Shown piece after piece: positions 2,541 to 43,332 of a stretch of DNA of 64,000 nt. The stretch spans positions 192,001 to 256,000 of the forward strand of contig JBGPQV010000001.1 in NCBI GenBank assembly GCA_041489255.1, given 5' to 3'. Each line of letters opens with the position of its first letter. Within the stretch, counting starts at the first letter, position 1. The stretch comes from Thermoplasmata archaeon (GTDB lineage: Archaea > Thermoplasmatota > Thermoplasmata > RBG-16-68-12 > JAFNFQ01). The notes under the pieces are model-generated. The model searched no databases. It was not told the origin of the DNA and saw nothing but the letters and a program-made list of their open reading frames with translations. The position numbers and the translations under genes were made by a program.

Positions 2541-5500
2541 ATGGAGCCCGCATACAGCCGACCCCATCCAAACCTGCGTCTGTTCGCAATGTTCACAGTG
2601 CTAATGCTGATCTTCGTCGCGATAGGATGGATCATCGGTGCAGTTTTCTTCGACGATTGGATCGCCGGTTCGCTCTTCTTCCTCATACTGGCGGGAGTGC
2701 TGAACCTGGTCAGCTACCTCTTTTCCGACAAGATCGTGCTGTGGTCCTACCGCGCCAAAATCGTGAGCGAAAATGAGGCACCACGCCTCTTCAAGATCGT
2801 GCGTTACGTCGCAGGCTTGAACGGCCTGCCCATGCCCAAGATCGCGATCGTCCCGTCCAAGACGCCCAACGCCTTCGCGACAGGCAGGAACCCGGAAAGG
2901 GCTGTCGTCGCAGCGACGGAGGGCATCCTCGAACTCCTGAACGACAATGAGCTCTCCGGCGTCATCGCGCACGAGATGGCTCACGTCAAGGACAGGGACA
3001 TCCTCGTCATGAGCGTCGCGGCGACGGTGGCGGGCGCGATAGCTTTCATGGCGCGGATGTTCGTTTGGAACATGTTCCTCGGCGGCAGGGGTCGAAGGGA
3101 AGGCAGTGGGGACATTCTCATAGTGATTCTGGTCGCAATCACCGCTCCAATCGCGGCAGTTGCGGTTCAGTTGGCGATCTCGCGGAGCAGGGAGTATAAA
3201 GCCGACTTCGTCGGAGCGCGAACAATCGGGAAGCCCAACTACCTCGCCGACGCCCTCGAGAAGCTGGAGGTCGCGAACAGGCGCAGGCCGATGCGGCGAG
3301 GCAACCCTGCATCGTCGTCCCTGTTCATTGTCAACCCGTTCAACGGGAGCTTCTTCTTCACGCTGTTCTCCACTCACCCGCCAATGGAAAAGAGAGTGAG
3401 GAGACTCAGGGACATGGCGAGCGCCTCAATCATCGGTTCCACGATAGAGTACCTCTGGGGAGATGACCTCTATACCCGAGAATATGTCCCAAGCGGATTG
3501 GTGATATGGTCTGACAATGTCTCCGTCGACTCCTCTCAAATAAGGGACGCGGAGGCGTCGGCTGTATGGATCAGCGGGGGCTCTCCGTCCATCTCCAGAA
3601 CTTGGATCGCGCATACGGGTGGAGGGGCGGTCTACATGGACCTCACGAACGCGAGCTTCATCGGGAACACCATTGAGTTCACAGGCGAAAGTGGAGTTTC
3701 GTCAGGCGGGCTTGCAGCTGTTAGAGGACACGCAAAGATAATCGGCAATACGATCCGAGACACTGTCGCGGTCGGCGGTTCCGTGGGGTTAAGCGCGCCT
3801 CTTGTCTTGGACAACACAATTGAGAGCGCGATAGGGGTTTACGCCTTTGACGGCGACTCTCAAATCGTCGGCAACACGATTCTGTCAGACACCATCGGCA
3901 TCGTTTTCGGCGATAGGGGAGATCCTCTGATAGAGAATAACACCATGATTTGGACGGGCACAGTTTCTAACGAAACCGGATCTGCGGGGATATCTAATGA
4001 GAATTCATATGGTGCGCTCTCCCACGGAAGGGTCATTGGGAATACAATCATCGGCTTCCCGACCGGAATCTGGTCTCTGGGGGGAACCGAGACCCTGTTT
4101 CTCGGAAACACAGTCAGAGGGGCGAACAGAAGTGTCAGATGCTGGCCCGAATCGACTTCAAGCTTCATAGGAAACACGTTCGAGAATCAGTACATCGGTT
4201 TCGACGCGGGAGCATGTCAGGCGAAGGAGATCGCGAACAACACATTCAGAAACACCAAGGCATGGGATTTTTACATAGTCACTGGCGGGCTACCTTGGCA
4301 CGCCGTGGCTGTCAACAACTCATTTGATTCCGACAAGGTTCTCATTGCCGAGGCAGGCTCGGACCTCACGATTGAGAATTACCTCGACGCACGCGTCCTC
4401 GACAAGAACCTCCGTCCCCTCCCTGCTGCGACGGTCCAGGTGGGCACAATCGGACAGTCCACTCAACTGGCTACCACGGATTCGGAGGGAGAAGCCAGGT
4501 GGTTCCGTGTCCCGTACGTCAGATACGACTACGACGATTACAACCGCGTGCTTCACATTGGGAATCCTTTCAAACTGTTCTGGTTTTCCTCGTCTGCGGC
4601 GGCCACCTATCCCGCCAAGGACTTGAACAATCTCCCCGACTACCCGAGCCCCCGTTCTGTCAACATGTCCAAGTCCCACTGGGAGTACTTCATCGAGGTT
4701 GGCGCTCCTGACATGGTCGAGCTGGCCATGGAGAGCGTTCAGGCAACACCCGACCCAGTGTTTCTGGGAACACCTGTCTCCATAACCGCCACCGTGAGGA
4801 ACTGGGGCATCGTGAACGCGACGAACGTGTACGTCGAGTTCCGGAACGGAGGATTGAGCGGGACTCCGATTGGGTCTGTTCTCCTGGGCGGGATAACACG
4901 CCTTGGCGGCAGCCGAACGGTCGGGATGTCCTGGACGCCCCCGGCGGCGGGTGACTACACCCTCTGCGTGATCGCGGACCCGCTGAACGCGATTCCTGAG
5001 CTCGATGAGAACAACAACGGTGCCTGCACGAACCTGACCGTGGTCGCCCTACCTGACCTGGCCGTCACGCCGTCGGATGTTTCGTTCCTGCCGGCCCCGC
5101 CATTCGCAAACGGTTCCACGATCCTGATTACTGCTGCAATCTGGAACGCGGGCCTCGCTAGCTCACCCGCCACTTTCGTCCGCTTCCACGACGGGGTGCC
5201 GCCTTCCCCGGCGATTGACGGGGATGTGCCCGTCGGTCCGATCCCTGTTGGCGGGAGCGATATCGCTCAGGTCCAGTGGATTGCATCTGGAGTCGGGGGC
5301 CACGAGATATGCGTAGTGGCGGACCCGGGCAGCACTGTCGCGGAGACAGACGAGAACAACAACATGGCGTGCGTGCCCGTTCAGGTCCTCTCCCTGCCTG
5401 ACCTGGCGCCGACCTCAATCGTGACAGTCCCTCCATCGCCGATCCCCGAGGGCACGCTCTCCAAGGTCAACGTGACAATCGTCAACGCTGGCGACGTGTC

Positions 5501-7505
5501 TGCGGGAGGGTTCGACCTGCTGCTGTTCGACGACTCGAACGGCAACCTCGCTCCCGATCCCGGCGAGGACGTCGGCGTGCATGCAATGACTGGAATCTCC
5601 GGTCATTCTCAGTCGTACGAGGAGTTCTCCTGGTCGGCCGCTCCCGCGGGCGCTCACAGCCTCTGCGCCTACGCCGACCCGCCACCCGGCATGGTGACCG
5701 AGTCTAACGAGACGAACAACGTGATGTGCATCGACATCCTCGTACAGCCGGGCCTAATCCTCAGGCCAGACTACGCTCCGGACTCTCCTCTCCCCATCCC
5801 GCCGATCAGGGTGGGCATGTCCTCTCCCGTCTCCCTCTCGATCCAGGTGCTCAACCAGGGGAACGGCACCGCCACCGGCGACGCGACGGTCGCCTTCCAC
5901 GAGCAGTCATCACCGCCATTCCTCACTTTTGTCCTGAGTCCTCTTGCTCCCGCTGCCGTTTCCTCGCGGTTCACCGCTACGTGGACATCACCCGCCGTCC
6001 CGGGCACATACCTCGTGTCCGTCGATGTGGACTACTACGACAACGTGACCGAGTGGGACGAGACGAACAACGTCTACACGTGGGCGATTGAGGTGGTGGC
6101 TGGTCCAATTACATCTCTCGTGATTGGCTCTCCGAACTACACCACCACGGTGACGTACGTCAAGTCCGTCACTCCCCTCGACTTCTCCGTCATCGACCAG
6201 AGCGGGCTCGGGATAAGGAACACCACGTACACGATCGACGGCGGGGCACCTGTCAACTACACCGCCCCGGGGATGTTCTTCCTGGCGGGAGAAGGAGAGC
6301 ACGCCGTCGAGTGGCGCTCGCTGGACTGGGCGGGGAACCTGGAGGACCTCAATTCAAGGGTGCTGAGGGTGGACGACATTCCCCCCGCAACGACTCTCTC
6401 CATTGGTGATCCCAAGTACCTCGTCGGCGGGAACTTCGTCACCTCGTCCACTCCGCTCGCTCTGCTGGCGGTCGATGGCGGCGTTACCCCCGTCGGACTG
6501 GACTACACGGAGTACAGGGTGGATGGCGGGAACTGGAAGACGTACTCATCGTCATTCGCCATGGCGGGAGAGGGAATGCACGTTCTGGGGTACCGCTCGC
6601 GCGACCTGCTCGGGAACAGCGAGGCGATCCAGTCGATACAGATAGTGGTCGACAACACTCCTCCCGCCACCGCCATCTCGACCGGTGAACCCAAGTACCT
6701 GACCGGCGGCAATTTCGTCAATTCCTCGACTCCCCTCACCCTCTCGGCGGCGGATGGCGGTGTCGGTTCCAACTCCACCTTCTACCGCCTCTGGGGCGGT
6801 TCCTGGTCTCCGTGGCGGGACTACTCCACATCGTTCAGCCTGGCGGGAAGGGACGGGACCTGGTACGTCGAATTCCGTTCATTCGACTACCTCGGGAACA
6901 TGGAGGCCGTCCGGAACGAGACATTGATCCTCGACGACACGCCGCCTGTCACGACGATCTCCCCCGCCGCTCCGTTCACCCTCGCCGCCGCGGATTCCGG
7001 TTGCGGGGTGAACGTCACGATGTACCGGATAGATGGCGGGAGCTGGACGGTCTACACCGGCGGCTTCACCCTCGCCGAGGGGGAGCACACCATATACTAC
7101 TACTCGATCGACAACCTAGGCAACGTCGAGCAGGAAAGGTCGCTGGTCGTCAAGCCGGCGGTCGAAGTGGCGGTGAACTACAAGCCTCTCATCGCTCTCG
7201 TCTTTGCCATCATCCTGGCGGTTATCGGACTTTTATCGTCCAAGAAAAGGCCCTGGAAGAGCGGGAATGACAGGATGGCGGTGGCGAAGGCCTTCGCGTT
7301 CACCTCGCTGCCATTCGTCCTCGCCGAGGCGGGGACGGGGATGGTCTCGCTGCTGACAGGTCAGTTGTCAATACCGCCACTGGCGGGAGTCGGCACAGCG
7401 ATAGACTTGGCCATCCTCTTGGTGGGGCTGGGAGCCGCTGTAATGAGGACGAAGAAGAAGGAACCGGCGAAAGCCGAACAGATGGACGTGCCCAAAGGCC
7501 AGTGA
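2541..7505 (+). CDS. htpX: Chimeric ORF: HtpX (M48 Zn protease, aa 1-294) fused to the beta-helix/CARDB/Ig-like body of a surface glycoprotein with a C-terminal membrane anchor
   Basis: PNAFATGRNP, AHEMAH (HEXXH), SRSREYKAD and STHPP motifs; followed by GNTI beta-helix repeats, four CARDB-like repeats (DPxNxIxExDENNN), D(D/N)TPPxT Ig-like repeats, many NxS/T sequons and 3 C-terminal TM segments. Confidence 0.85.
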   Translation: MEPAYSRPHPNLRLFAMFTVLMLIFVAIGWIIGAVFFDDWIAGSLFFLILAGVLNLVSYLFSDKIVLWSYRAKIVSENEAPRLFKIVRYVAGLNGLPMPKIAIVPSKTPNAFATGRNPERAVVAATEGILELLNDNELSGVIAHEMAHVKDRDILVMSVAATVAGAIAFMARMFVWNMFLGGRGRREGSGDILIVILVAITAPIAAVAVQLAISRSREYKADFVGARTIGKPNYLADALEKLEVANRRRPMRRGNPASSSLFIVNPFNGSFFFTLFSTHPPMEKRVRRLRDMASASIIGSTIEYLWGDDLYTREYVPSGLVIWSDNVSVDSSQIRDAEASAVWISGGSPSISRTWIAHTGGGAVYMDLTNASFIGNTIEFTGESGVSSGGLAAVRGHAKIIGNTIRDTVAVGGSVGLSAPLVLDNTIESAIGVYAFDGDSQIVGNTILSDTIGIVFGDRGDPLIENNTMIWTGTVSNETGSAGISNENSYGALSHGRVIGNTIIGFPTGIWSLGGTETLFLGNTVRGANRSVRCWPESTSSFIGNTFENQYIGFDAGACQAKEIANNTFRNTKAWDFYIVTGGLPWHAVAVNNSFDSDKVLIAEAGSDLTIENYLDARVLDKNLRPLPAATVQVGTIGQSTQLATTDSEGEARWFRVPYVRYDYDDYNRVLHIGNPFKLFWFSSSAAATYPAKDLNNLPDYPSPRSVNMSKSHWEYFIEVGAPDMVELAMESVQATPDPVFLGTPVSITATVRNWGIVNATNVYVEFRNGGLSGTPIGSVLLGGITRLGGSRTVGMSWTPPAAGDYTLCVIADPLNAIPELDENNNGACTNLTVVALPDLAVTPSDVSFLPAPPFANGSTILITAAIWNAGLASSPATFVRFHDGVPPSPAIDGDVPVGPIPVGGSDIAQVQWIASGVGGHEICVVADPGSTVAETDENNNMACVPVQVLSLPDLAPTSIVTVPPSPIPEGTLSKVNVTIVNAGDVSAGGFDLLLFDDSNGNLAPDPGEDVGVHAMTGISGHSQSYEEFSWSAAPAGAHSLCAYADPPPGMVTESNETNNVMCIDILVQPGLILRPDYAPDSPLPIPPIRVGMSSPVSLSIQVLNQGNGTATGDATVAFHEQSSPPFLTFVLSPLAPAAVSSRFTATWTSPAVPGTYLVSVDVDYYDNVTEWDETNNVYTWAIEVVAGPITSLVIGSPNYTTTVTYVKSVTPLDFSVIDQSGLGIRNTTYTIDGGAPVNYTAPGMFFLAGEGEHAVEWRSLDWAGNLEDLNSRVLRVDDIPPATTLSIGDPKYLVGGNFVTSSTPLALLAVDGGVTPVGLDYTEYRVDGGNWKTYSSSFAMAGEGMHVLGYRSRDLLGNSEAIQSIQIVVDNTPPATAISTGEPKYLTGGNFVNSSTPLTLSAADGGVGSNSTFYRLWGGSWSPWRDYSTSFSLAGRDGTWYVEFRSFDYLGNMEAVRNETLILDDTPPVTTISPAAPFTLAAADSGCGVNVTMYRIDGGSWTVYTGGFTLAEGEHTIYYYSIDNLGNVEQERSLVVKPAVEVAVNYKPLIALVFAIILAVIGLLSSKKRPWKSGNDRMAVAKAFAFTSLPFVLAEAGTGMVSLLTGQLSIPPLAGVGTAIDLAILLVGLGAAVMRTKKKEPAKAEQMDVPKGQ

Positions 7506-7617
7506 CGGCCGAGATGGCTGTCGGTCAAGATTGACGTTCGCTGCAAGAAGGGCCTCTTTCACCTCGCCATCGTCGCATCATGCCGTGTCGGCAGTCCTGC
7601 CCCGCCGTCGCAGAGGC

Positions 7618-8061
7618 TCACACCCGGAATCCATCAGCCCTCAGCGTCTCGATTAACTCGCTGGTCGTGAAGCACCTCACACGCGTCTGTCTCTTGAGAT
7701 GCGGATCATCCGACCATACCCCGTCGCACCGGACTGACAGGGCCATCGCGAGATAGACCGCGTCCCTCGGGTCTATCCCGGTCATGGCCTTCTCCGCCTC
7801 GTCCAGGCTGCCGGAGAAGACGGCCTCAGGCAGGACGACGAAGTACTTGCCGAGGGTGGCCAGGAGCGCCTCAGCCTGCCTCCTCTCCAGTCCGGCCCTC
7901 CGGCTCAGCTTGGGGAGGTGCCGGCGGACCTCCTCGAAGAGGTACTCGGGCACGAGCAGCCGGAGCCCTGAGAGCGTGACGATCCTTCGTACGGTGGAGT
8001 CTCTCAGGAATGCGGCGACGAAGACGTTCGCGTCGGCGACGAGCCTCAGCGGTGCCGCCAC
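7618..8061 (-). CDS. PIN-domain toxin (VapC-like)
   Basis: LVADANVF N-terminus, EE motif, DPRDAVY and WSDD acidic PIN residues; directly downstream of a small RHH gene. Confidence 0.85.
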   Translation of the reverse strand: MAAPLRLVADANVFVAAFLRDSTVRRIVTLSGLRLLVPEYLFEEVRRHLPKLSRRAGLERRQAEALLATLGKYFVVLPEAVFSGSLDEAEKAMTGIDPRDAVYLAMALSVRCDGVWSDDPHLKRQTRVRCFTTSELIETLRADGFRV

Positions 8062-8065
8062 GGAA

Positions 8066-8299
8066 TCACCCCTTGACGCCCTTTCCGTAACGCCTCAGCA
8101 GAGCTTCCTTCAGGAAGTGGTCAAGCTCGTCCACGTCGTCAGCCGAGAGCACGCTCTTCGCGGTCAGGCGGTCCATCAGCTCCAGGTCGCGTATCCTCTC
8201 GGCGAGCACACGCCTCACCACCTCGCTCCACTTCACCTCGGGGTGCTTCTTCATCTTCCGGTGCAGGCTCTCCGGGACCGACAGGGTGATGTTGGCCAT
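8066..8299 (-). CDS. Ribbon-helix-helix antitoxin (VapB/CopG-like), 77 aa
   Basis: MANITLSVPESLHRKMKKHPEVKWSEVVR RHH pattern; operon arrangement with the PIN gene. Confidence 0.8.
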   Translation of the reverse strand: MANITLSVPESLHRKMKKHPEVKWSEVVRRVLAERIRDLELMDRLTAKSVLSADDVDELDHFLKEALLRRYGKGVKG

Positions 8300-8450
8300 C
8301 GAATGACATATGTGCGCCCACATAATTGACCTTTTCGCCCTGGTTCTCCCTCGGGTCGACGGCAGGTGACGATGACGGCGATTCGCCATTCTTCTCATCG
8401 TCAGATGATGACTGTGGCCCAGACACGTTCACTCTCCGCCCTGTCGTCGC

Positions 8451-8737
8451 TAGAGCCGCTGGTGGCGGTGTTCGCAATCATCTTGGCGGTTGTCAGCCCT
8501 TGGTCTTCGAAGAGGAGGCCGTGGAAAGGCGGGAAGGACAGGATGACGGTGGCGAAGGGGTTCCTGGTCGCGTCCCTGCCATTCGTCCTCGCGGAGGCGG
8601 GGATGGTCTCGCTGCTGACAGGCCAGATGTCGATACCGCCGGCGGTCGGGATGGGGACGGCTGTACCTGGCCATCCTCTTGGCGGGGCTGGCCGTCGCGA
8701 TGCTCAGAGCGCTCAGGAAGACCGGGACGGAACCTGA
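8451..8737 (+). pseudogene. Degenerate remnant of a surface-protein C-terminal membrane anchor
   Basis: PLVAVFAIILAVV..SSKRRPWKGGKDRM..SLPFVLAEAG..SLLTGQMSIPP closely matches 7181-7440; has small deletions and a frameshift; no gene body upstream. Confidence 0.75.
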
Positions 8738-8972
8738 AGGACACAGCATGGTTCACTCAGATCCCTGAGATGGCTGCAAATAGCCATGCCTCGACCTCTC
8801 GATGCTCGCGGCATACCACCGCCTCCGTTCGAGCACCTTCGGTGAGGAGTTAAGAACCCGATTAACAACCTTCGCAATCAGGCAGCTGACGGATTACTAT
8901 GGATTAGATACTCATAACACCCGGGATTACGCGACTCCTATGCTGCTCTAACATCCCTCCGGACCAGCTCAC

Positions 8973-9164
8973 TTAGTACCTTCCGCCTCCGCCTCTGCGC
9001 GGGGGCCTGTGCTTCGCGAAGCAGTCACGGCAGTAGACCGGCCTGCCATCAGTCGGCTTGAAGGGGACTTCCGCTTCCTTGCCGCAGTCTGAGCAGACTA
9101 TCTTGTGCATTTCTCTTGGTCCTCTGTCGAATCCGCGACCGCCTCTGTCTTCGAACTCACTCAT
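8973..9164 (-). CDS. CxxC-x17-CxxC zinc-ribbon protein, 63 aa
   Basis: PREMHKIVCSDCGKEAEVPFKPTDGRPVYCRDCF; AGGAGA ribosome-binding site upstream of ATG 9164. Confidence 0.85.
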   Translation of the reverse strand: MSEFEDRGGRGFDRGPREMHKIVCSDCGKEAEVPFKPTDGRPVYCRDCFAKHRPPRRGGGGRY

Positions 9165-9273
9165 CTTCTGTCTATCTCCTATTGTCTGTGGCAGGCCCCT
9201 TGTGGGCCCCGCCACGCGAGAACAAATGCTGTTTCCATATATAGTTGTGCCCCAGAGGAGGCGGGAAAAGGGG

Positions 9274-9810: not shown

Positions 9811-9906
9811 TCTCCTGCACCTGATTGAGGTTAGGACGGAGGGTGTTTAAGACTTTCGAAATCAGGGGCGTTTATCTGGAGCGCCGCCATGGTTTCATGT
9901 GAGAAC

Positions 9907-13283: not shown

Positions 13284-13306
13284 ACCTGCTCAGCTAGTGC
13301 AATCAA

Positions 13307-13332: not shown

Positions 13333-13334
13333 AC

Positions 13335-17416: not shown

Positions 17417-17435
17417 GCCGGCTCACGGTCAATCC

Positions 17436-28245: not shown

Positions 28246-28249
28246 GCGA

Positions 28250-31648: not shown

Positions 31649-31682
31649 GCACAGAGGAGCATTCACCAGCCTAGCGAAATAA

Positions 31683-31709
31683 GCCCCGCCATGCCAACGC
31701 AGGCGGGGC
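31683..31709. other. GC-rich hairpin between thermosome and grpE
   Basis: GCCCCGCC-N11-GGCGGGGC, a perfect 8-bp inverted repeat. Confidence 0.4.
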
Positions 31710-31768
31710 ACCTACCACACTGCGCAAGCGACCGCGGGCGTTGGCAATCTCCAGGAGACGATGCCGAG

Positions 31769-32350
31769 ATGCCGGGGAAGAAAGAGTCGAAAGCGGACAA
31801 GGAAACCCCAGAGCAGGCGGAAGCTCCAGAGGATGCTAGCCAGCCTGTTGCAGCGACGGAGCAAGGGGCAGAGGCGAAGCCGGAAGCTCCGCCGCAGCCT
31901 GACGAGAAGGTCGTATTGCTGCGGAGGAACGAGGAACTCCTTTCTCGGATGATGTACCTTCAAGCGGAATTCGAAAATTATCAGAAGAGGGCGCTGAGGG
32001 AGAGACAGGACATCGTCGCGAACGCGCAGGAGGGGCTCCTGAGGTCACTCCTCCCGATATTGGATGACTTCGACAAGGCTGTCGAGATCGCCGGGGAAGG
32101 TGATTCCGGGCTGAGACTGCTGCATGCCAAGCTCCTGAAGATCCTGGAGGAGAGCGGCCTGGTTGAGATTCCCGCCAAGAGCCAGAAGTTCGACCCGTTC
32201 ATCCACGACGCGGTCGAGTTCGTGAACGAGAAAGATATGGAGCACGGGACGATCAAGGAAGTCATCCGCAAGGGATATAGATGCAACATGAAGGTATTGA
32301 GACCATCTCTTGTGATCGTTGTCAAGAACGAAGGTGAGAAGAATGCCTAA
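31769..32350 (+). CDS. grpE: Nucleotide exchange factor GrpE
   Basis: [27 protein letters not shown] and KGY..VLRPS motifs. Confidence 0.92.
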
Positions 32351-34187
32351 GATAATCGGAATAGACCTGGGAACGACGAATTCGGAAGCCGGATACATGG
32401 AGGCCGGAGTGCCGAAGATCATACCGAGCGCTGAGGGCAGCACGTACGGCGGCAAGATGTTCCCCTCCTTCGTGGCTTTCACGAAGGACGGGCAGGTGCT
32501 GGTGGGCGAACCCGCCAAGCGCCAAGCCGTCATGAACCCCGAGCGCACCGTCATGCAAATCAAGAGGAAGATGGGGACCGACTACACGGTCAACATCGAG
32601 GGGAAGACATACACTCCTCAAGAGATCAGCGCGATGATATTGAGGAAGATCAAGACCGACGCCGAGGCATTCCTCGGGGAGCCTGTGAACCAGGCGGTCA
32701 TAACCGTCCCCGCTTACTTCAACGACAACCAGCGTCAGGCCACCAAGGACGCGGGCAAGATTGCGGGACTGGAGGTCTTGAGGCTGGTGAACGAGCCAAC
32801 GGCAGCGGCTTTGGCCTATGGCCTGGACAAGAAGGGCGAGGGCAAGATATGCGTCCTGGACCTTGGCGGCGGGACGTTCGATGTCACCCTCATGGAGATG
32901 GGCGAGGGCGTTTTCGAGGTCGTCTCCACCAGCGGAGATACGCAGCTCGGCGGCATGGACATGGACAACAAGCTGGTCGACTGGATATCCTCCGAGTTCA
33001 GGAAGAAGGAAGGGGCGGACATCACCGGCGACCGTCAAGCCATGCAACGCCTCAGGGACGCCGCCGAGAAGGCGAAGATCGAGCTTTCCAGTACGCTCAA
33101 CACGACCCTCAACCTTCCTTTCATCACCCAGAAGGACGGAAAACCGGTGCACCTCGAGATGGCCCTCACAAGGGCGAAGCTCGAAGAGATCATCGAGCCG
33201 GTGCTCTCACGGTGCAGGGCCCCGATCGAACAGGCCTTCAAGGACGCGAAATGGAGCTACAACGACGTGAACCACATAATCCTCGTTGGAGGACCGACGC
33301 GCATGCCGGTTGTCCGCGAGAGATTCGAGAGTGTGATCGGAAGGAAGGCAGAGCGGGGCGTCGATCCGATGCAATGCGTCGCTCTCGGAGCTGGGATTCA
33401 AGGAGCGGTGCTGAGCGGCGAGGTGAAGGACATCCTCCTGCTCGACGTGACCCCGCTGAGCCTTGGAGTCGAGACCTTGGGCGGCGTCTTCACCAAGCTG
33501 ATAGAGAGGAACACGACGATACCAACGCGCAAGAGTCAGGTGTTCACGACCGCGGCGGACGGGCAGACCACAGTCGAGGTCCACGTGCTGCAGGGTGAGA
33601 GGCCGATGTCGGGCGACAATGTCTCCCTCGGCAAGTTCCACCTCGTCGGCGTTCCGCCTGCCCCGAGGAACGTACCCCAGATCGAGGTGACATTCGATAT
33701 CGACGCGAACGGGATCATCAACGTCTCCGCAAAGGACCTCGGAACCGGCAAGGAGCAGAAGATGATGATCACCGCCACGAAGAGGCTCGGCGAAAACGAG
33801 ATCGACCGCATGGTCAAGGACGCCGACAAGTACTCCGAGGATGACAGGAAACGGAAGGAGGCCGCGGAGATAAGGAACCAGGCGGACCAGGCGGTGTACA
33901 CGACAGAGAAGATGCTCAAGGAGATGGGCGACCAGATAAGCGAGGCGACGAAGGCGGGCGTCCAGGCGAAGGTCGAGGATCTGAAGAAGGCGCTCCAGAC
34001 CAGCGACATAGCGCAGATCAAGAAGAGCCTCGAGGCCTTGAACCAGGAAGCGCAGAAGATCGGGGTCGAGATATACCAGAAGGCGCAGTCGAGCCAGTCG
34101 ACTCCACCGCCTTCAGGCGAGGCGAAAGGGTCAAAGCCGGGCGACGACAATGTCGTGGACGCTGACTTCAAGGATGTGAAAGACTAG
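32343..34187 (+). CDS. dnaK: Hsp70 chaperone DnaK
   Basis: [27 protein letters not shown] and [11 protein letters not shown] motifs. Confidence 0.97.
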
Positions 34188-34221
34188 ACGGCGGGAACGC
34201 CAGATCGGATGCGCTGAGTGC

Positions 34222-35358
34222 ATGGCGAAACGTGACTACTACGAGGTGCTCGGGGTCACCCGCGAGGCCTCCAAGGATGAGATCAAGAGCGCATACCGGA
34301 AGGCCGCCAAGAAGCACCACCCCGACCTGAACAAGGACAATCCCCAGGCCGAGGAGAAGTTCAAGGAACTCTCCGAAGCGTACGAGGTCCTGATGGATGA
34401 TCAGAAGAAGCTGCTCTACGACCAGTACGGCTTCTCCGGGGTCCAGAGGCAGTGGGGCGGCGAGGGCTTCGACTGGTCACGGTTCACACACTTCAATGAC
34501 ATCGAGGACATTTTCGCCGACTTCTTCGGAGGTGGCGGCTTCAGTGGAAGCCTGTTCGACCAGCTTTTCATGTCGCGCGCGAAGGCTGGACCGTCGAGAG
34601 GCGCCGACCTGAGGTATGACATCGAGATTCCGCTGAAGGAGGCGCTCGATGGGGTCAAGAAGACAATCCAACTGCCGATGCGCGTCGCGTGCGACAAGTG
34701 CGGCGGGAGCGGTGCGGAGGGTGGGAAGATGACCGTCTGCCCGGAGTGCGGCGGGCGCGGTCAGATAAGCAGGAGCCAGCGGAGGGGTTACAGCCAGTTC
34801 GTCACGATCACCACCTGTCCACGCTGCCGCGGTCGGGGTCAGTGGCCCGACAAGAGGTGCGCGGCCTGCTCGGGACTTGGGGAGATCGAGAAGATATCGA
34901 CAATCTCCGTGAGCATCCCGCCGGGCGCCTACGAGGGTCTCAAGTTGAGGCTGCAGGGCAAGGGCGAGCCTGGAGTCAGAGGTGTCGCGCCAGGCGACCT
35001 CTACATCGTTGTCCACCTTGCGGAGGACAAGAGGTTCGAGCGCGACGGGAACGACGTGATCGTGGAGGTCCCAATCACATACAGCCAAGCCGCGCTCGGT
35101 GCGGAGATAGAGGTCCCCACGCTCGAAGGGACGGCGATGCTCACCGTCCCTGCGGGGACCCAGAGTCACACAGTTTTTAAGCTCCGGGGGAAGGGCATGC
35201 CCGCCCTCGGCGGGCGGGGCAGAGGGGACGAATACGTCCGCGTGACGGTGAAGACTCCAGTGAGACTCTCCTCCGAAGAACGAGGCCTACTGGAAAGACT
35301 CGACGAACTGGAAGGTTCAGCGTCTACCAAGCCTCGGTTTTTCGGGAAATCGAAGTAG
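34222..35358 (+). CDS. dnaJ: Chaperone DnaJ
   Basis: J-domain HPD; four CxxCxGxG repeats. Confidence 0.97.
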
Positions 35359-35361
35359 CGC

Positions 35362-35523
35362 TCACGGGAGGTTCGCAATGATCGAGAACGCCTTCACCAA
35401 GAAGTAGAAGGCAATGATTGCCCCGCTCGCAATCGCAATCACAAGAACATCCTTGAGGATGATCTTCCCTAGTCCCGGTTCCGAACTGTTTGCGGCCACG
35501 TCGCCGTGTTGCGTCGAATGCAT
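35362..35523 (-). CDS. Small single-TM protein (53 aa; below ORF-track cutoff)
   Basis: Hand translation MHSTQHGDVAANSSEPGLGKIILKDVLVIAIASGAIIAFYFLVKAFSIIANLP*; fills the gap, convergent with dnaJ. Confidence 0.45.
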   Translation of the reverse strand: MHSTQHGDVAANSSEPGLGKIILKDVLVIAIASGAIIAFYFLVKAFSIIANLP

Positions 35524-35638
35524 CCTCAACGCCAATAATGGCCTCGCGGCTTAATAAAAATTGTTGTTTGCCTCTCGAAACTTGAAACTCAACTGGGCGC
35601 TAACCATATCTAAGCAGAGCGCGCTTCACTCTGTGAGC

Positions 35639-36388
35639 ATGAAGAAGGTCCTTGGCATCCTGACGGAGGACTTCCGCCTCTATCATGACCTGGTCGCAAC
35701 GCTGAAGGCGAGGGACATACCGTTCGTGAGCCTTTCATTCTCCGAGCGAATACCTTCCAACGTCGGGGCGATACTCACTTCCGTCGCCGAATCGCCGCGG
35801 ATCCGCTTCCCTCACAAGGCCGAGTGCGGGGACATCGAAGATTCAGTGATGAGAGCCCTGCAGTTGCTGAGAGGGAAGACCGGGTGGAAGGAGGTCATTA
35901 TAGGCATCGACCCTGGGAGCGAGCCCGGGCTGGCGGTGATCGGGGACGGGGAGGTTCTGGACGCACGGAGCGTCAATTCCCCGGAGGCGGTCGCACCCGC
36001 CGTTGTCTCGGCGATCAGCAACTTCCCGGCTGACATGTGCACTATCAGAATCGGTCACGGGGACGCGACGAACCGCAACAGGATCATCAACACCTTGGCG
36101 GAAAACGATCTCAGGGTCGACATCGTCGACGAGAAGGGAACGACCAGGCGCACAGAACACCCGGATGCGGATGCGGCAATCCGGATCGCCTTCACCCCGG
36201 GAGTGAGGGCCGCAAGGCACTATGACATCCGACCGACCGAGGGGGAGCTGAAGGAGATACAGAGAAGGAGCCGCCTGAAGAGCGAGGGGGAGATGACTAT
36301 ATCCCAGAGCCTTGCCAGGTCGGTTGCCAGAGGGGAGATGACCCTGGCAGAGGCCATCTCGGTCCACCGTCGCAGGAAGGAGCGCTAG
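35639..36388 (+). CDS. Conserved hypothetical protein with RNase H-like (YqgF/RuvC-like) motifs
   Basis: VIIGIDPG..PGLAV, IRIGHG, IVDEKGTT and DADAA..IA motifs. Confidence 0.7.
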   Translation: MKKVLGILTEDFRLYHDLVATLKARDIPFVSLSFSERIPSNVGAILTSVAESPRIRFPHKAECGDIEDSVMRALQLLRGKTGWKEVIIGIDPGSEPGLAVIGDGEVLDARSVNSPEAVAPAVVSAISNFPADMCTIRIGHGDATNRNRIINTLAENDLRVDIVDEKGTTRRTEHPDADAAIRIAFTPGVRAARHYDIRPTEGELKEIQRRSRLKSEGEMTISQSLARSVARGEMTLAEAISVHRRRKER

Positions 36389-36453
36389 CAGTTTTCAAAG
36401 TCAGCTAAAGGTATCCTAAGACTCATATAGTTCGTTTGACTTGAATTCAAGCC

Positions 36454-38682
36454 GTGACCGAAAAGGTCGTTCTCAAGGTTGCGGAGGCGCCACAGTCCGA
36501 CGTGGGACTTGGCAGGGCGCGAGTGGACACGAAGACCAGGATGGCCCTGGGACTCGATGTCGGTGAGATCGTCGAGATCATCGGCAAGAAAAGCACGTCC
36601 GCCAAGATCTTCAGGGTCATGCAGGAAGACGAAGGGAAGGGCATCATCAGGATAGACGGCTTGGTGAGGAGAAACGTCGGCTGCTCCATCGGTGACAGGG
36701 TCGAGGCGAAGAAGGCCGAGGTTCTGACGGCCGAGCGCGTCACGATTGCGCCGATAATCTCCGAGGGCCACAGGATCTCGTTCGGCCAGGGAATAGAGAA
36801 CTTCGCCAAGCGCGGGCTGCTGAAGAGGCCGCTCATGAAGGGGGACGTCGTCATAGTGCCCGGCATAGCGCTGATGGGCGGTGCACTGCCGTTCATGGTC
36901 GTGAAGACCACGCCTAAGGGCGTCGTCCAGATCAACGACGAGACAATCATCGAGATGAAGGAGGAACCCGTGAGGGAGGGGGAGGTGCTCACCACCGCCA
37001 TCACCTACGAGGACATAGGCGGGCTGAAGGAGGAGTTGCTCAAGGTCCGCGAGATGATCGAGCTGCCGCTGAAACACGCGGAGCTGTTCGAACGCCTCGG
37101 TATCAACCCGCCAAAGGGAGTCCTGCTCTACGGACCGCCGGGCACCGGCAAGACGCTGATCGCGAAGGCGGTAGCGAATGAGGCGGGTGCGAATTTCTAT
37201 TCCATACAGGGCCCGGAGATAATGAGCAAGTACTACGGGCAGAGCGAAGAGAGGCTCAGGGAGAAGTTCGACGAGGCGCAGAAGAACGCGCCGAGCGTGC
37301 TGTTCATCGACGAGCTGGACAGCATTGCCCCGAGGAGGGAAGAGGTCACGGGAGAGGTGGAGAGGCGGGTCGTCGCCCAACTGCTGACGCTCATGGACGG
37401 GCTGTCCGACCGCGGGCAGGTCATAGTCATCGCAGCGACCAACCGCGAGGAAGCAATCGACCCGGCTCTGAGGCGCGGGGGACGGTTCGACCGGGAAATC
37501 GAGATAGGCGTCCCGGACCGCATAGGCAGGAAGGAGATACTGCAGATCCATTCGCGAGGCATGCCGATAGAAGGCAACGAGGAGGACAGGGAGAACCTCC
37601 TCACAGAGCTGGCGAACGTCACCCACGGCTTCGTCGGGGCGGATATGGCCGCGCTGGCGCGGGAGGCGGCTATGAGGACGTTGCGGCGCTATCTCCCCGA
37701 GATAGACTTGGACAAGCCGATACCGTCCGAGATACTGGAAAAGATGCGGGTGACCCCGGGCGATTTCAAGGAAGCGCTGAAGGAGGTCGAGCCGAGCGCT
37801 ATGAGGGAGGTCCTCGTGGAGATACCGCACACCACCTGGGATGACGTCGGCGGTCTGGAGGACCTGAAAGCGAAGTTGAAAGAGGCGGTCGAGATGCCGC
37901 TCAAGGACCCCGAGTCGTTCAAGCGCATGGGCATAACCCCGCCGAGGGGTATACTGCTCTACGGCGCCCCGGGGACCGGCAAGACGCTGATCGCCAAGGC
38001 GGTCGCGACGGAATCGGAGTCGAACTTCATCAGCATCAAGGGTCCCGAGGTCATGAGCAAGTGGGTGGGGGAGAGCGAGAAGGCGGTGCGCATGATCTTC
38101 AAGAAGGCGAGGCAGGTGGCGCCCTGCATAGTCTTCCTCGACGAGATTGACGCGATAGCACACAGGCGCGGCGGGGGGGAAGGCGACTCGGGTGTCACGG
38201 AGCGGGTGGTCAACCAGCTGCTCACGTCCATGGACGGCTTGGAGAGCAGGGAGGGCGTGCTGGTGATCGCCGCCACGAACAGACCGGACATGGTGGATCC
38301 GGCGCTGCTGAGGGCGGGCCGGTTCGACAAGCTGATTCTGGTCCCTGTGCCCGACGAGAGGACCCGTCTGGAGATACTCAAGGTCCACACGAAGAGCATG
38401 CCTCTGGACGGCGACGTCTCGATCAGCGAGTTGGCCAAGGAGATTGAGGGCTACACCGGCGCAGACATCGAGGGGCTGTGCCGCGAGGCGGCCTTGTCCG
38501 CCCTGAGGGAGAACAGGAAGGCCAAGAAGGTCTCCATGAAGCACTTCGAGGAGGCCAAGAAGAGCGTGCACCCTTCGATGGACGAGGAGACGGCGAGGGT
38601 CTACGAGAGGATGGGGCAGGAGATGGAGAAAGGCATCTCCAAGAAGGAGCGCGAAGAGATCAGCATGGGGTACTATAGGTAA
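36454..38682 (+). CDS. cdc48: CDC48/VAT AAA+ ATPase
   Basis: N-domain plus two AAA modules ([33 protein letters not shown]). Confidence 0.96.
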
Positions 38683-38755
38683 CCGGGCCCCGCCATCGCA
38701 GAGCTAAAATACGTCTGGCGTGTTACTGGCTCAAAGAAAGCCAGGAGGCGATGGG

Positions 38756-39001
38756 ATGAAAAAGTTTGTCAGCGAGCTCCGCGGCAAGACCGTTATGACG
38801 CAGGATGGCCAGATTCTTGGCATGATCGAGAACCTCATGGTCGACACGAGGTCTGGCAAGATCCAGGACGTGCTGGTCATTCCCGCAGAGGAGGTCGAGA
38901 CGAAGCTCTACAAGACCGACGCCCAGGGTCGCATAATCCTGCCCTTCACGGGCATGAAGTCGGTCAAGGACGTCGTCGTGATGACGGTAAAGCCAGAGTG
39001 A
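38756..39001 (+). CDS. PRC-barrel domain protein
   Basis: LRGKTVMTQDGQILGMIENLMVDTRSGKI...KSVKDVVV. Confidence 0.85.
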   Translation: MKKFVSELRGKTVMTQDGQILGMIENLMVDTRSGKIQDVLVIPAEEVETKLYKTDAQGRIILPFTGMKSVKDVVVMTVKPE

Positions 39002-39097
39002 ACCGCAAGCTCCCGTTTCAGCATTTTTCGCCCGGACTTGGGCGAGCGCCCCAATAAATGATATATCACCGAAGCTATACGGGAGCAGAGAGGACTG

Positions 39098-39580
39098 ATG
39101 GTAGCGGAATTCACCCTTGGACTCGTGTTCCTAGTCATCGGAGTGATAATGCTCGTTATTGAGGCGGCCTCTCCCGGCTTCTTCATGGCGGTCCCGGCCA
39201 CGGTGCTAATCGTCATTGGTCTGCTCGGCATGTTTGTGGAAGGTTTCCTGTTCTCGGTCTGGAGCCCAATACTGGCCATGCTCATCGGCATCCCGATAAC
39301 GCTCTTCACGATGTGGTTCTACTCGCGGTTCTCCCCGCCATCACCGCCGACGACCACGGTCGGAGAGAGCCTGATTAGCCGCCAGGGTATCGTCACCGCC
39401 TTGGTGAGACCGCATTCCTTGAGGGGCAAGGTGAGGATCGAGAACGAGAGCTGGAGCGCGACCTCCGACGAAATCATACCCGTGGGGGAGCGGGTCTTGG
39501 TGATCGGGAGCGAGGGTGTGCATGTCATCGTCCGGCGGCTGACAACCCCGGACACAGGGAAAGGAGGAGGGTCGAAATGA
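39098..39580 (+). CDS. NfeD-family membrane protein
   Basis: N-terminal TMs plus C-terminal OB fold (GKVRIENESWSA); paired with an SPFH gene. Confidence 0.88.
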   Translation: MVAEFTLGLVFLVIGVIMLVIEAASPGFFMAVPATVLIVIGLLGMFVEGFLFSVWSPILAMLIGIPITLFTMWFYSRFSPPSPPTTTVGESLISRQGIVTALVRPHSLRGKVRIENESWSATSDEIIPVGERVLVIGSEGVHVIVRRLTTPDTGKGGGSK

Positions 39581-40824
39581 AGGAAAACGATGTGAGGTCG
39601 GGCAAGAGGGAGATTGGCGCAACGATCATGCTCGGAACTCTCGGTCTGATGTCGCTGGACATGTTCGGGCTGACGGCGCAGGTGGAAATCGGGATCGTGG
39701 TCGGGCTGTTCATCCTGATCCTGATCGCCGTCATGATACTGCTGGCGAGCTCGATGAAGATAGTCCAGCCGTATCAGCAGGGACTGCTCATAGTCCTGGG
39801 GAGCTTCCGCAGGGTGCTCAATCCCGGCATGAACTTCGTCCCGCCGATGATTTCCGAGGTGAGGAGAATAGACCTGAGGACGCAGGTGCTCGATGTTCCC
39901 CGCCAGGAAGTCATCACCAAGGATAACTCGCCGACGAACGTCGACGCGGTCATCTACATCAAGGTCATAGACCCCAAGAAGTCGTTCTTCGAAGTCACGG
40001 ACTACCATATCGCAACTTTAGCACTCGCGCAGACCACGCTCAGGTCGATCATCGGTGACATGGAGCTGGACGAGGTTCTGTACAACCGAGACAGGATCAA
40101 CCTGAGGCTCAGGGACGTGCTCGACGAGGCGACTGATAAATGGGGCGTGAAGGTGGACGCCGTCGAGATAAGGGAAGTCGACCCGGTGGGCCCGGTCAAG
40201 GCCGCGATGGAGGAGCAGACATCTGCAGAGAGGCAGAGGAGAGCAGCGATCCTCCGAGCTGACGGTGAGAAGAGGTCTGCCATACTCGTGGCGGAAGGGC
40301 AGAAGAGATCCCGCATCTTGCAGGCCGAGGGTCTTCGGCAGGCGAAGATACTCGAGTCCGACGGACAGAGGCTTTCGATCATCCTGGAAGGGCAAGGAGA
40401 GGCGCAGAAGCTGCGCATACTCGCGCTTGGCGCGGCTGCTCTCGACACGAAGGCGCTCTCGGTCCTGAGCATGGACACCGTGAAGGAAATGTCCCGTGGG
40501 CAGGCGACCAAGATAATCTTCCCGTTCGAAATCAGCAAGATGATCGAGGGCATCAGCTCCTATCTCGGCGCAGCGACGGCGAGAGTCCCGGAAAGGGGGA
40601 TATCGGATCTCCCTTCATTGGAGAAGGCCCTGGGCAGGATTGACCAGGTTCTCGGCCCCTTGCCGAACCCCGAGGAGATCAGGGAGGAGATGAGATACAT
40701 CAAGGAGGAGATGAGGGGGATATCGCCTTCCACCGGGGCCAGCATGCCCGAAGAGGTCAAGAAGCGCAAGACCGTCGAAGAGATCTTGAAAGAAGAGGAA
40801 GACGAGGCGATAAAGGGCAGGTAG
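39577..40824 (+). CDS. SPFH/stomatin-like (QmcA-type) protein
   Basis: IDLRTQVLDVPRQEVITKDN, QTTLRSIIG and AERQRRAAILRADG motifs. Confidence 0.92.
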   Translation: MKENDVRSGKREIGATIMLGTLGLMSLDMFGLTAQVEIGIVVGLFILILIAVMILLASSMKIVQPYQQGLLIVLGSFRRVLNPGMNFVPPMISEVRRIDLRTQVLDVPRQEVITKDNSPTNVDAVIYIKVIDPKKSFFEVTDYHIATLALAQTTLRSIIGDMELDEVLYNRDRINLRLRDVLDEATDKWGVKVDAVEIREVDPVGPVKAAMEEQTSAERQRRAAILRADGEKRSAILVAEGQKRSRILQAEGLRQAKILESDGQRLSIILEGQGEAQKLRILALGAAALDTKALSVLSMDTVKEMSRGQATKIIFPFEISKMIEGISSYLGAATARVPERGISDLPSLEKALGRIDQVLGPLPNPEEIREEMRYIKEEMRGISPSTGASMPEEVKKRKTVEEILKEEEDEAIKGR

Positions 40825-40907
40825 CTGGCAAGCGATCGGCTCTTGGCAATCAGTTTCACCTCTCCCTCGGGCGAGGCTAATACCAGCCTTGGAGTTCATG
40901 GGCTCGG

Positions 40908-41372
40908 ATGTACTGGACAGAGGAGCTCATGTGCCGCCCCGTCTTGGCGCACTTCCGGTCCTTGGGCTACCGTGTCTACCGCGAGGCGAAGGTTGCGGGA
41001 AGGTGGGTGGACATCCTCGCGGTGGGCAAGGAGATCGTGGCGGTGGAACTCAAGATTCGAAACTGGCGGGAGGCCCTCAAGCAGGCGATGTCCTACCAGC
41101 TCGGCGCGCACTACGCGCTCGTCGCCATGCCCCTCGACCACGTGTTTCCCGCGATGAGATCCCGGCACCTGTTCGAGCGCGAGGGAGTCGGGCTTATGGC
41201 GGTGAGTTCGGCCGCGGGCGACGTGCGGGTCTTGATCGAACCGGAAGCGTCGCCCAGGCTTCTGCCGTTCGTCCTTGACGGGGTGCTTTCTGGCGGGGAC
41301 GGGAAATCGGGAAAGCCGGTGAGGAGAAGGAAGGTCCCTGTGATCGAGATACCGGGGTTCTCGGCGCCTTAG
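40908..41372 (+). CDS. Putative PD-(D/E)XK nuclease-fold protein
   Basis: E...VDILAV....AVELK......QA..Y motif arrangement. Confidence 0.65.
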   Translation: MYWTEELMCRPVLAHFRSLGYRVYREAKVAGRWVDILAVGKEIVAVELKIRNWREALKQAMSYQLGAHYALVAMPLDHVFPAMRSRHLFEREGVGLMAVSSAAGDVRVLIEPEASPRLLPFVLDGVLSGGDGKSGKPVRRRKVPVIEIPGFSAP

Positions 41373-41454
41373 ATATTCGTCAGCGATTCTGCCGAGACTG
41401 AGCAACTTTATTACCGGTCATCGCGATGCCGTCGCGTCCCCCGGGGGTTCTGTT

Positions 41455-42792
41455 ATGGCTGATGACAGTCCAACAAACAGAGTGCTTGAGGCCGTTAAGA
41501 AGGAGAAGGTCAACTTCGTCCAGATGCAGTTCATGGATTTGCTGGGATTCGTCAAGACGGTCACAATCCCCACGACCAAGATCGAGAGTGCCATGGAGAA
41601 TGGCGTAGTTTTCGATGGCTCCTCTGTCACCGGCTACGCTGAAATAGAGGAGAGCGACATGCGCGTGCGGCCGGACCCCACGACGTTCAAAATCTATCCG
41701 TGGATATCCGGCGACCTCAAGACGGCCGCGATGGTCTGCAACGTGTACGACTCGAGCGGCAAGAGGTTCAGCGGCGACCCCCGGTACATCCTCGAACAGA
41801 CCATGAAGAAGGCGAGGGAACTGGGATACATCTGCTACACCGGTCCCGAGTACGAGTTCTTCCTCTTCAAGATGGACGGCGGGGGCCAGGTGACGAGCAT
41901 CCCCTGCGATTCGGGTCGATACTTCGAGCAGCTGCCCCTGGACAAGGGCGAGGTCGTGAGGAAGAAGACGATCCTGTACTTCAACGAGATGGGGTTCGAT
42001 GCGGAGGCAGGGCATCACGAGGTAGCGCCGGGCCAGCACGAGATAGACCTGCGGTACACCGATGCGTTATCCTCGGCGGACAGGGTGCTGACCCTGAAAC
42101 ACGCCATCAAGACGGTGGCGCTGGAGCAGGGTCTGCACGCGAGCTTCATGCCGAAGCCGATATTCGGGGTGAACGGCAGCGGGATGCACGTGCATCAGAG
42201 CCTCATGACGCCTGAGGGCGAGAACATATTCTACGAGCCTACGGCGAAGTGGGAGCTCAGCGACAAGTGCATGTGGTACATCGGGGGCCTGCTGATGTTC
42301 GCAAGGGAGAACTGTGCCGTGCTCGCCTCCTGGGTGAACAGTTACAAGCGACTGGTGCCCGGGTACGAGGCGCCGGTCTACATCAGCTGGGCGAACAAGA
42401 ACAGGTCGGCGCTGATACGAGTCCCGGCGGGCAGAGGGATGAGCACCCGCCTGGAGGTGAGGAATCCCGATCCCAGCGGCAACCCTTACCTGCAGTATGC
42501 GGTGATGCTCGCGGCGGGGTTGAGGGGGATGTACAAGCAGGTAGAGCCGCCGAGCCCGGTGGAGACCAACATCTACGCCCTCGGGGCTCTTGAAAGGAAG
42601 AAACTCTCCATAGGCAGCCTTCCCGCCGACTTGGAGGAGGCGCTGGACGAGCTGGAGAAGAGCGACCTGATGCGGGAGACGCTGGGGGCGCACGTCTGGA
42701 CCAACTACCTGTATCTCAAGAGGCAGGAGTGCGAGGAGTACAGGACGCAGGTGACGGACTGGGAGCTGAAGAAGTACCTGGCGGTCCTCTGA
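41455..42792 (+). CDS. glnA: Glutamine synthetase type I
   Basis: FDGSS, EYEFF, HHEVAPGQHEI, FMPKP..NGSGMH, NSYKRLVPGYEAP and NRSALIR motifs. Confidence 0.96.
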   Translation: MADDSPTNRVLEAVKKEKVNFVQMQFMDLLGFVKTVTIPTTKIESAMENGVVFDGSSVTGYAEIEESDMRVRPDPTTFKIYPWISGDLKTAAMVCNVYDSSGKRFSGDPRYILEQTMKKARELGYICYTGPEYEFFLFKMDGGGQVTSIPCDSGRYFEQLPLDKGEVVRKKTILYFNEMGFDAEAGHHEVAPGQHEIDLRYTDALSSADRVLTLKHAIKTVALEQGLHASFMPKPIFGVNGSGMHVHQSLMTPEGENIFYEPTAKWELSDKCMWYIGGLLMFARENCAVLASWVNSYKRLVPGYEAPVYISWANKNRSALIRVPAGRGMSTRLEVRNPDPSGNPYLQYAVMLAAGLRGMYKQVEPPSPVETNIYALGALERKKLSIGSLPADLEEALDELEKSDLMRETLGAHVWTNYLYLKRQECEEYRTQVTDWELKKYLAVL

Positions 42793-42798
42793 GGAATC

Positions 42799-43332
42799 TC
42801 AGTACATAGGGATCTTGCCGCTCCCCAGGATGTCGAAGTGGTACCTCAGGCCGTACACGGTGTACTGCATGGGCGGGACAGGACCCGTGTGAACGGTGGT
42901 AGTCGTCTTGTCATACGCCGTGATTGTCGAACTCTTGACCAAGAGTCGCCCATCAGCATAAACGAGTATCCCGTACTGCCCGTCAATGGTCGAATTGATC
43001 ATCAACGTCACATTGTCAAGGGCGAGACTGCCGCCACCCTGGACCGTTAGGTTGCCCTTCAGGACGATGGTCTCGTTGGACCTCTGCTCCACCTGGCCCG
43101 GACCAATCGTCCAATCCGAATCCATCTCGACGGACGGGTTCGCATCCGAGCGTGAATCGAGCTTCGCGGCATGAGGATGACCTGCCGCGGAGCGATTCAA
43201 TTGCGTGCCGCCTGCGCCCAAGTCAAGAATCGAAGCGAACCCTAGGAGAACAAGCATTCCAATGAGGACTGCGCTCGATGCTCGTCTCCGCCCATGCCCG
43301 GTTGACCTCCACTTGATCAATCTAGGTCCCAT
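42799..43332 (-). pseudogene. N-terminal part (signal peptide plus first beta-helix turns) of a surface glycoprotein, ending in a foreign GKIPMY tail
   Basis: Basic n-region plus hydrophobic h-region; NETIVLKGNLTVQGGGSLALDNVTL repeats; ends abruptly at ..FDILGS|GKIPMY*. Confidence 0.75.

Follow-up and report, generated by a model that had tools for sequence, protein, structure and literature searches.

A probable recent 39.4-kb inversion that exchanged the ends of htpX and a surface-protein gene in an uncultured sediment archaeon

Chromosomal inversions are outlined by Repar and Warnecke (2017, PMC5850607) as a form of structural variation in the evolution of prokaryote genomes, and invertons are outlined in 10.1101/2023.03.11.532203 as DNA that a site-specific recombinase inverts at paired inverted repeats, so that one population contains both orientations. 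The locus considered here lies in a stretch of 64,000 nt (hereafter the window) that corresponds to positions 192001-256000 of contig JBGPQV010000001.1 (C1) in the Thermoplasmata archaeon assembly GCA_041489255.1 (G000), a 2.74-Mb draft in 41 contigs; contig C1 measures 388,098 nt (388 kb). In the window, the htpX gene, encoding an M48 heat-shock membrane protease, and the gene of a large beta-helix/CARDB surface protein have exchanged their 3' ends. This arrangement very probably goes back to a genuine, recent, one-off inversion of 39.4 kb that became fixed in a single strain lineage of an uncultured archaeon from sediment.

Like the inversions treated in PMC5850607, insofar as that source outlines them, the event concerns a block of core genes that is flipped relative to close relatives, has two reciprocal breakpoints and was inherited in a lineage. 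With the shufflon-like "partial intergenic" invertons, as sketched in 10.1101/2023.03.11.532203, it shares one end in a surface-protein gene, a changed coding sequence and the absence of DNA loss. Unlike invertons, it displays no repeat longer than 5 bp, no nearby recombinase, a 39-kb segment of housekeeping genes and a single orientation per assembly or run. The inversion was, moreover, caught while polymorphic within the species in environmental samples. Long inverted repeats, such as insertion sequence elements or ribosomal RNA operons, underlie most of the inversions described, whereas the breakpoints here are situated in two unrelated genes at a 5-bp match and both genes become in-frame chimeras. 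A literature search turned up no account of the organism and no comparable case in archaea, which is no proof that none is in print.

For comparison, a same-genus genome (G001) and two metagenome contigs found by a scan with a 26-base htpX word (L037 and L038) were used. The parts of the two genes and the segment between them are as follows (window coordinates, strand, description).

2541-3422 (+): htpX codons 1-294, comprising the whole M48 core (PF01435, E 2.1e-31 at residues 79-292; HEMAH motif)
3419-3423 (+): left crossover core GAGCG, part of TGGCGAGCG (3415-3423)
3424-7505 (+): 3' part of the surface gene, chimera residues 295-1654 (CARDB E 3.1e-49, NosD E 2.7e-08)
3424-42818: inverted segment between the cores, 39,395 bp, in the orientation opposite to that of G001 contig C65, L037 and L038
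41455-42792 (+): glnA, ancestral convergent neighbour of htpX, inside the inverted segment and 6 bp from the stop codon of the surface-gene stub
42799-42818 (-): original htpX tail (G)KIPMY with stop codon, now the 3' end of the stub, identical to the htpX 3' end of L038
42823-42819 (-): right crossover core GAGCG, part of TGGGGAGCG (42827-42819)
42820-43410 (-): 5' part of the surface gene, residues 1-197 from the first ATG, with the signal/anchor segment (peak 44-62) and the first beta-helix rungs

Two open reading frames (ORFs) contain the exchanged parts. The ORF at 2541-7505 (+) encodes 1654 aa, made up of HtpX residues 1-294 and the last 1360 residues of the surface protein, in the domain order Peptidase_M48 (79-292), NosD, four CARDB stretches, Big_13 and a hydrophobic C-terminal anchor. 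Its HtpX part has hydropathy peaks at residues 14-32, 43-61, 153-171 and 191-209 (four hydrophobic segments), and the protein possesses both the M48 domain and the HExxH motif, at a length of 1654 aa as against 284-300 aa in 12 stand-alone members of its protein cluster. Residues 295-1654 comprise beta-helix repeats, the four CARDB stretches, Ig-like repeats and the C-terminal membrane anchor, whereas their own signal/anchor segment has been cut away. The ORF at 42799-43410 (-) encodes 203 aa, namely the surface-protein N-terminus ending in the HtpX tail GKIPMY, i.e. HFDILGSGKIPMY followed by the stop codon; a Pfam search with this stub gave no family match. Signal/anchor segment, beta-helix, CARDB stretches and C-terminal anchor of the surface protein are thus all present, but split over two ORFs that lie 39 kb apart on opposite strands. 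The left junction (+) reads AGG GAC ATG GCG AGC G/CC TCA ATC ATC GGT and the right junction, on the - strand, GAC ATC CTG GGG AGC G/GC AAG ATC CCT ATG TAC TGA (slashes mark the breaks). The 9-mers at 3415-3423 and 42827-42819 are identical at eight of nine bases, and the AGC serine codon stands in one common frame at both junctions. A preliminary description of the window, made from its sequence, had reported these junction sequences, the GAGCG core and the common frame, and they proved exact to the base at 3419-3423 and 42823-42819.

The un-inverted order was found in all three of the other DNA assemblies recovered (G001, L037 and L038; 95-99% DNA identity). G001 encodes an HtpX of 300 aa that is 98% identical to the HtpX part of the window and ends in RLRDMASGKIPMY before the stop codon, and its htpX and glnA genes stand tail to tail with a 6-bp gap, the latter being 99.8% identical to the window glnA. 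Contig C65 of G001 is colinear over the join, aligning with window 33682-42827 (97.3%; L036 1-9158) and then with 3423-573 (96.7%; L036 9150-12000); the two alignments on either side of the join overlap by 9 bases. L037 and L038 are likewise un-inverted at the join, with identities on their two sides of 97.8% and 95.3% for the former and of 99.3% and 99.1% for the latter. At the far end of the segment, the terminal parts of G001 contigs C51 and C22 agree with the un-inverted arrangement, and both contigs break inside the accessory tract. The configuration that the preliminary description had predicted by flipping the segment on paper, a 300-aa HtpX tail to tail with glnA across 6 bp, was therefore seen directly in G001, and the join itself also in L037 and L038.

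More distant comparisons agree with this order. The 90%-identity protein cluster of the fusion (n = 15) consists of 12 stand-alone HtpX proteins, two fusions of 1654 aa and one protein, P0025, that is dealt with below. All 12 stand-alone members (284-300 aa) end in SGKIPMY, SGKIPLY or SGKIQMY, so that GKIPMY, already taken for the HtpX tail in the preliminary description, recurs as such or as a one-residue variant throughout. Among the loci of 14 relatives across the order, the HtpX stop codon lies at most about 40 codons past the conserved C-terminal motif in every case, and glnA is convergent directly beside htpX in 4. The un-inverted order is ancestral, given the short HtpX in 14/14 relatives and the adjoining convergent glnA in 4/14. 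An HtpX::surface fusion was found in none of the 14 loci and in none of the 12 other HtpX proteins of the cluster; conservation of the fusion in relatives had been named beforehand as an observation that would speak against an inversion. As a separate observation, the ancestral order placed htpX at the end of a protein-quality-control cluster (29999-42792) with thermosome, grpE-dnaK-dnaJ, cdc48, nfeD-SPFH and glnA, and the inversion shifted it to the opposite end of the cluster, where some 27-39 kb separate it from these neighbours.

The intact form of the surface protein was traced as well. P0025 (1467 aa, encoded on a 31,138-nt contig) is an intact ortholog that reads over the predicted join: HFDILGSASIIGSTIEYLWG / YHFDILGSASIIGSTIEYLWG / GLRYHFDILGSASIIGSTIEYLWGDDLYTRE. 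Its residues 1-105 align with stub residues 96-200 (95% identity) and its residues 84-1467 with chimera residues 280-1654 (94.3%). A paralog on contig C7 of G000 (open frame 86039-81425, -) matches both pieces head to tail and is gapless at the join, with 75% identity to the stub part and 76% to the 3' part; stub Ser197 and fusion Ser294 both map to its residue 186. Two more distant homologs, P0004 and P0005 (55-56% identity), are each a single full-length protein that continues over the join. The window gene shares a common architecture with these archaeal beta-helix/CARDB surface proteins (C7 paralog, P0025, P0004 and P0005; 55-95% identity), but differs from them in that its 5' stub and its 3' part are separate and lie on opposite strands. 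The rebuilt surface protein of the preliminary description thus has a natural counterpart. Its length of 1531 aa holds if translation starts at the second Met (M27), whereas from the first ATG the protein measures 1557 aa. A search of 5.8 billion proteins returned no intact ortholog above 72% identity, P0025 having come from the cluster look-up, and G001 was found to contain no ortholog of the surface gene, just paralogs at 34-46% identity.

In a structure model of the first 480 residues of the C7 paralog (mean pLDDT, the predicted local distance difference test score, 76.3), the chain is all-beta from about residue 38 to 460, and the position equivalent to the join (142/143 in the model) falls between two strands of a continuous all-beta domain. 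The top fold matches of the model were all right-handed parallel beta-helices, although weak (best E 3.2e-4; template modelling scores 0.14-0.33 among the first ten), which supports the parallel beta-helix class and nothing finer.

The junctions are real DNA. Of public sequencing runs, 22 are listed as matching window 2600-4300, and nine of these contain half or more of the words sampled from that interval; all nine are sediment metagenomes. The four runs with the most of these words were compared as Logan contigs, which are assemblies made independently of G000 and which drop rare variants:

run X1: Logan contig covers 2600-4300; may be the source sample
run X2: Logan contig covers 3299-4085
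run X3: Logan contig covers 2600-3674
run X4: Logan contig covers 3319-3534

The left junction (3423/3424) was bridged in all four runs with 0 differences, and no loose end at this junction was reported in the Logan contigs of X1-X4. Run X4 also yielded contigs of a second htpX variant at window 2629-3005 (10 and 6 differences), none of which reaches the junction; more than one strain of the group is therefore present in that sample.

For the right junction, a homolog search at near lengths with the 203-aa stub and exact look-ups of its 203-aa and 177-aa forms found nothing. In gene calls the stub begins at a later Met and measures 108 aa, and exact look-up of that form matched on three contigs, of 388,098 nt (C1 of G000), 400,906 nt (P0033) and 295,341 nt (P0032). 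Both junction products share one contig in the last two cases, the 400,906-nt contig encoding the fusion P0001 together with P0033 and the 295,341-nt contig the fusion P0030 together with P0032. P0001 is identical to the window's fusion. P0030 differs from P0001 by H1022R (one change in 1654 aa), and P0032 ends in HFDILGIGKIPMY, the junction-codon Ser having become Ile in the stub. Because of H1022R and this Ser-to-Ile change, the 295,341-nt assembly represents a separate sequence that inherited both junctions. No additional contig of G000 carries the ancestral join.

The exchange is conservative on both sides. On the htpX side, comparison of L038 with the two window junctions revealed no base lost or gained, and on the surface-gene side, comparison with P0025 and the C7 paralog revealed no codon lost or gained. 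The left junction retains the htpX sequence GGCGAGCG and the right junction the surface-gene sequence GGGGAGCG; since each junction keeps its own gene's left flank, the crossover is placed within GAGCG. A run of identity of at least 5 bp over the break was met with P = 0.006 among 200,000 random breakpoint pairs from the window, and the 5-bp match was probably used in the exchange. No longer inverted repeat emerged around the two sites, the best inverted alignments within ±50, ±100 and ±200 bp being equalled or surpassed in 43, 52 and 131 of 300 shuffles, respectively. With the two cores in a common frame, an in-frame join at one junction entails an in-frame join at the other, and the outcome calls for no special explanation. 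GC and AT skew over the window follow gene direction and are uninformative on the inversion.

The following course of events would account for these data. In the ancestor, htpX (+) would have stood tail to tail with glnA, and about 39 kb away, on the other strand, an intact surface gene of about 1530-1557 aa would have been located in a small variable island. A single reciprocal and conservative exchange within the 5-bp GAGCG, present in inverted orientation and in a common frame, would then have flipped the intervening DNA. The mechanism was very probably illegitimate short-homology recombination, which may have taken the form of a type II topoisomerase exchange, a replication-associated exchange or an off-target act of one of the genome's recombinases, with no dedicated system involved, and the inversion would subsequently have been inherited clonally. 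It was presumably tolerated since htpX was cut just six codons before its end and the surface protein is redundant. A recent microhomology-mediated inversion, one of three explanations offered in the preliminary description, is supported by the ancestral forms found elsewhere and by the reciprocal junctions in the 5-bp core.

Several points weigh against this interpretation. Runs X2-X4 share one year and one habitat and may stem from a single campaign. The left junction is supported by contigs, from which rare variants are dropped, so that a minor fraction in the ancestral orientation is possible in X1-X4, and the evidence for the right junction consists of proteins predicted in three assemblies. 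An exchange that is both reciprocal and conservative is what site-specific or homologous recombination typically gives, and not the repair of two breaks by end joining. Both orientations occur among strains of about 99% identity, as a switch would also give. Finally, the topology and fate of the chimeric protein were deduced from hydropathy and from what is known of E. coli HtpX.

An alternative is a programmed, reversible inversion, in which a recombinase encoded elsewhere would flip the segment at TGGSGAGCGSC, the surface glycoprotein being ON when intact and OFF when decapitated and htpX providing the other half-site. A surface-protein gene is the usual inverton target in the account given in 10.1101/2023.03.11.532203, both junctions were formed conservatively and in frame, the two orientations coexist among strains that are about 99% identical, and four tyrosine and ten serine recombinase domains are encoded on other contigs of G000. 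Such a switch is nevertheless improbable. No inverted repeat extends past the 5-bp core (8/9 bases), and the genome shows no enrichment of the motif TGGSGAGCGSC (13 occurrences versus 15.4 expected). None of the 41 window ORFs covered by the Pfam scan is a recombinase or transposase, as the preliminary description had already noted for the window, and the whole 388-kb contig C1 gave 0 hits to PF00589 and PF00239, although action in trans is possible; the hits in G000 (Phage_integrase PF00589, 4; Resolvase PF00239, 10) are all off this contig. The flipped DNA consists of 39 kb of housekeeping genes, and the OFF state damages a conserved protease gene and yields no alternative functional product. 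The contigs of 4/4 runs, with the dropping of rare variants borne in mind, show the inverted junction only and no loose end. In the second inverted assembly, the change of the stub's junction Ser to Ile means that the two cores now mismatch, and the inverted assemblies are nearly identical (1 change in 1654 aa), which fits one inherited event. The ON/OFF switch envisaged in the preliminary description has thus gained no positive evidence, neither repeats nor a nearby recombinase having been found.

More generally, there is little to favour a trans-acting recombinase working, possibly reversibly, on a site of about 11 bp, or, as a milder version, an off-target conservative exchange by one of the 14 recombinases at a pseudo-site; the latter would account for the absence of base loss at the two junctions. 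If a true switch existed, the archaeon would turn a glycosylated surface protein on and off by inverting 39 kb of its core chromosome, with the htpX 3' end as the second half-site. Among the Resolvase genes, sets of three neighbouring genes with similar spacing and strands occur on C28 (14922-17872) and C25 (26748-29659), which, judged by their arrangement, may be two copies of one mobile element; the others are located on C18, C14 and C4.

With a one-off inversion as the preferred explanation, the consequences for the two proteins can be sketched. Where a normal HtpX has its last six residues, the chimera has 1360 residues from an unrelated surface protein; we infer that HtpX would keep its whole M48 core and that the added residues would come without a signal segment of their own. 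N-x-S/T sequons number 22 in the appended 1360 residues versus one in the HtpX part. In E. coli HtpX, the catalytic site is on the cytoplasmic side of the membrane. Since the HtpX C-terminus would lie on the active-site side, the appended part would be cytoplasmic and hence mislocalised, and it is probably useless or unstable. The surface protein, as suggested by the paralog model, would be reduced to a stub of about 200 aa that is cut in the middle of the beta-helix, with the loss of one of many paralogs. G000 contains 39 matches to fusion residues 295-953 (window 3423-5400; beta-helix and first CARDB stretches) and a second M48 gene on contig C8 (31% identity), and because of these many CARDB paralogs and the second M48 gene, the loss was likely cheap.

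It might be argued instead that the HtpX::surface chimera is no accident that was tolerated but a selected new gene, for instance a membrane protease to which a large binding domain has been added, given that its 1654-aa frame is open in two distinct assemblies and that the lineage is present in several sediment runs. This is doubtful in the extreme, as the event is so recent (one aa change in 1654) that an open frame is uninformative on selection, the added part lacks a signal segment and bears its 22 N-glycosylation sequons meant for the outside, and the fusion is absent from all 14 relatives' loci and all 12 other HtpX proteins of the cluster.

Still less can be said for an assembly chimera, that is, a misjoined contig from an organism really in the ancestral order, which had been the third explanation of the preliminary description. 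It would agree with the draft state of G000 (41 contigs) and with the ancestral order of the three other DNA assemblies, but the left junction is present without differences in Logan contigs of all four runs, and two further assemblies, one of which has substitutions of its own, encode both junction products. The two junctions are also exact reciprocals of each other, and a 5-bp match would presumably be unable to mislead a k-mer assembler. This explanation was consequently rejected. The reverse polarity, in which the window would preserve the older order and a reverse inversion would have produced the short HtpX and the intact surface gene seen in other strains, is scarcely credible, for although two orientations alone give no polarity, HtpX is short in 14/14 relatives across the order with glnA convergent in 4/14, and the C7 paralog, P0004 and P0005 are full-length and continuous over the join.

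Within the inverted segment, the 3' part of the surface gene is followed by a small accessory tract and then by core housekeeping genes. According to Pfam, the latter encode a MoaA-like radical SAM protein, an SDR, PFOR subunits, an HdrA/MvhD-like protein, an aldehyde dehydrogenase, an MFS transporter and PGM, as well as a GlmU-like protein, GT4, NAD kinase, IMPase, thermosome, GrpE-DnaK-DnaJ, Cdc48, NfeD, SPFH and GlnA. Neither of the tracts 3424-8453 and 42828-44041 is present in G001, and for this reason they are regarded as accessory; each forms one half of a small variable island that surrounds the surface gene, in agreement with the earlier proposal that two accessory-looking tracts on either side belong together. 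An ADH-like gene is located at window 43935-45131.

Further features of the island and its surroundings were recorded. A stretch shortly before the anchor of the surface protein (window about 7090-7230, fusion residues ~1518-1548; EGEHTIYYYSIDNLGNVEQERSLVVKPAVEVAVNYKP) is nearer to the 74-76% identical C7 paralog than to the 94% identical ortholog P0025 (EGVHNISFFSNDNLNNTERERWLVVTAGGQPPPPEVTVNYKP), a likeness that hints at gene conversion among paralogs. The anchor-coding DNA at 7166-7431 recurs about 1 kb downstream at 8454-8713, in a 175-aa ORF (8326-8853, +) without a Pfam match that may be the remnant of another surface gene. Stretches 70-84% identical to the anchor DNA were detected on many G001 contigs, and the four checked (C4, C6, C68 and C81) adjoin large CARDB genes, so that the repeated DNA looks like a shared anchor module. 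A gene with a PIN_2 domain (7618-8061, -; E 1.9e-20) lies beside the surface gene in the accessory tract and overlaps an unannotated ORF (7784-8329, +), and the pair may be a toxin-antitoxin remnant. Outside the island, a 304-aa ORF (48719-49633, +) gave a partial match to the Tubulin/FtsZ GTPase profile (E 1.7e-15, profile positions 81-189) and may be a CetZ-like or truncated tubulin-family gene.

The event belongs to the ordinary inversions by which prokaryote genomes are shaped. It adds a small data point on illegitimate recombination in archaea and no new kind of system. For annotation, it serves as a warning that the 1654-aa "HtpX" is the product of a rearrangement and not a new protease family, and the unique junction sequences provide a ready strain marker. 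The locus is a natural case of a few shared bases rearranging an archaeal chromosome and making two in-frame chimeric genes at once, with the ancestral and derived orders still coexisting in closely related sediment populations.

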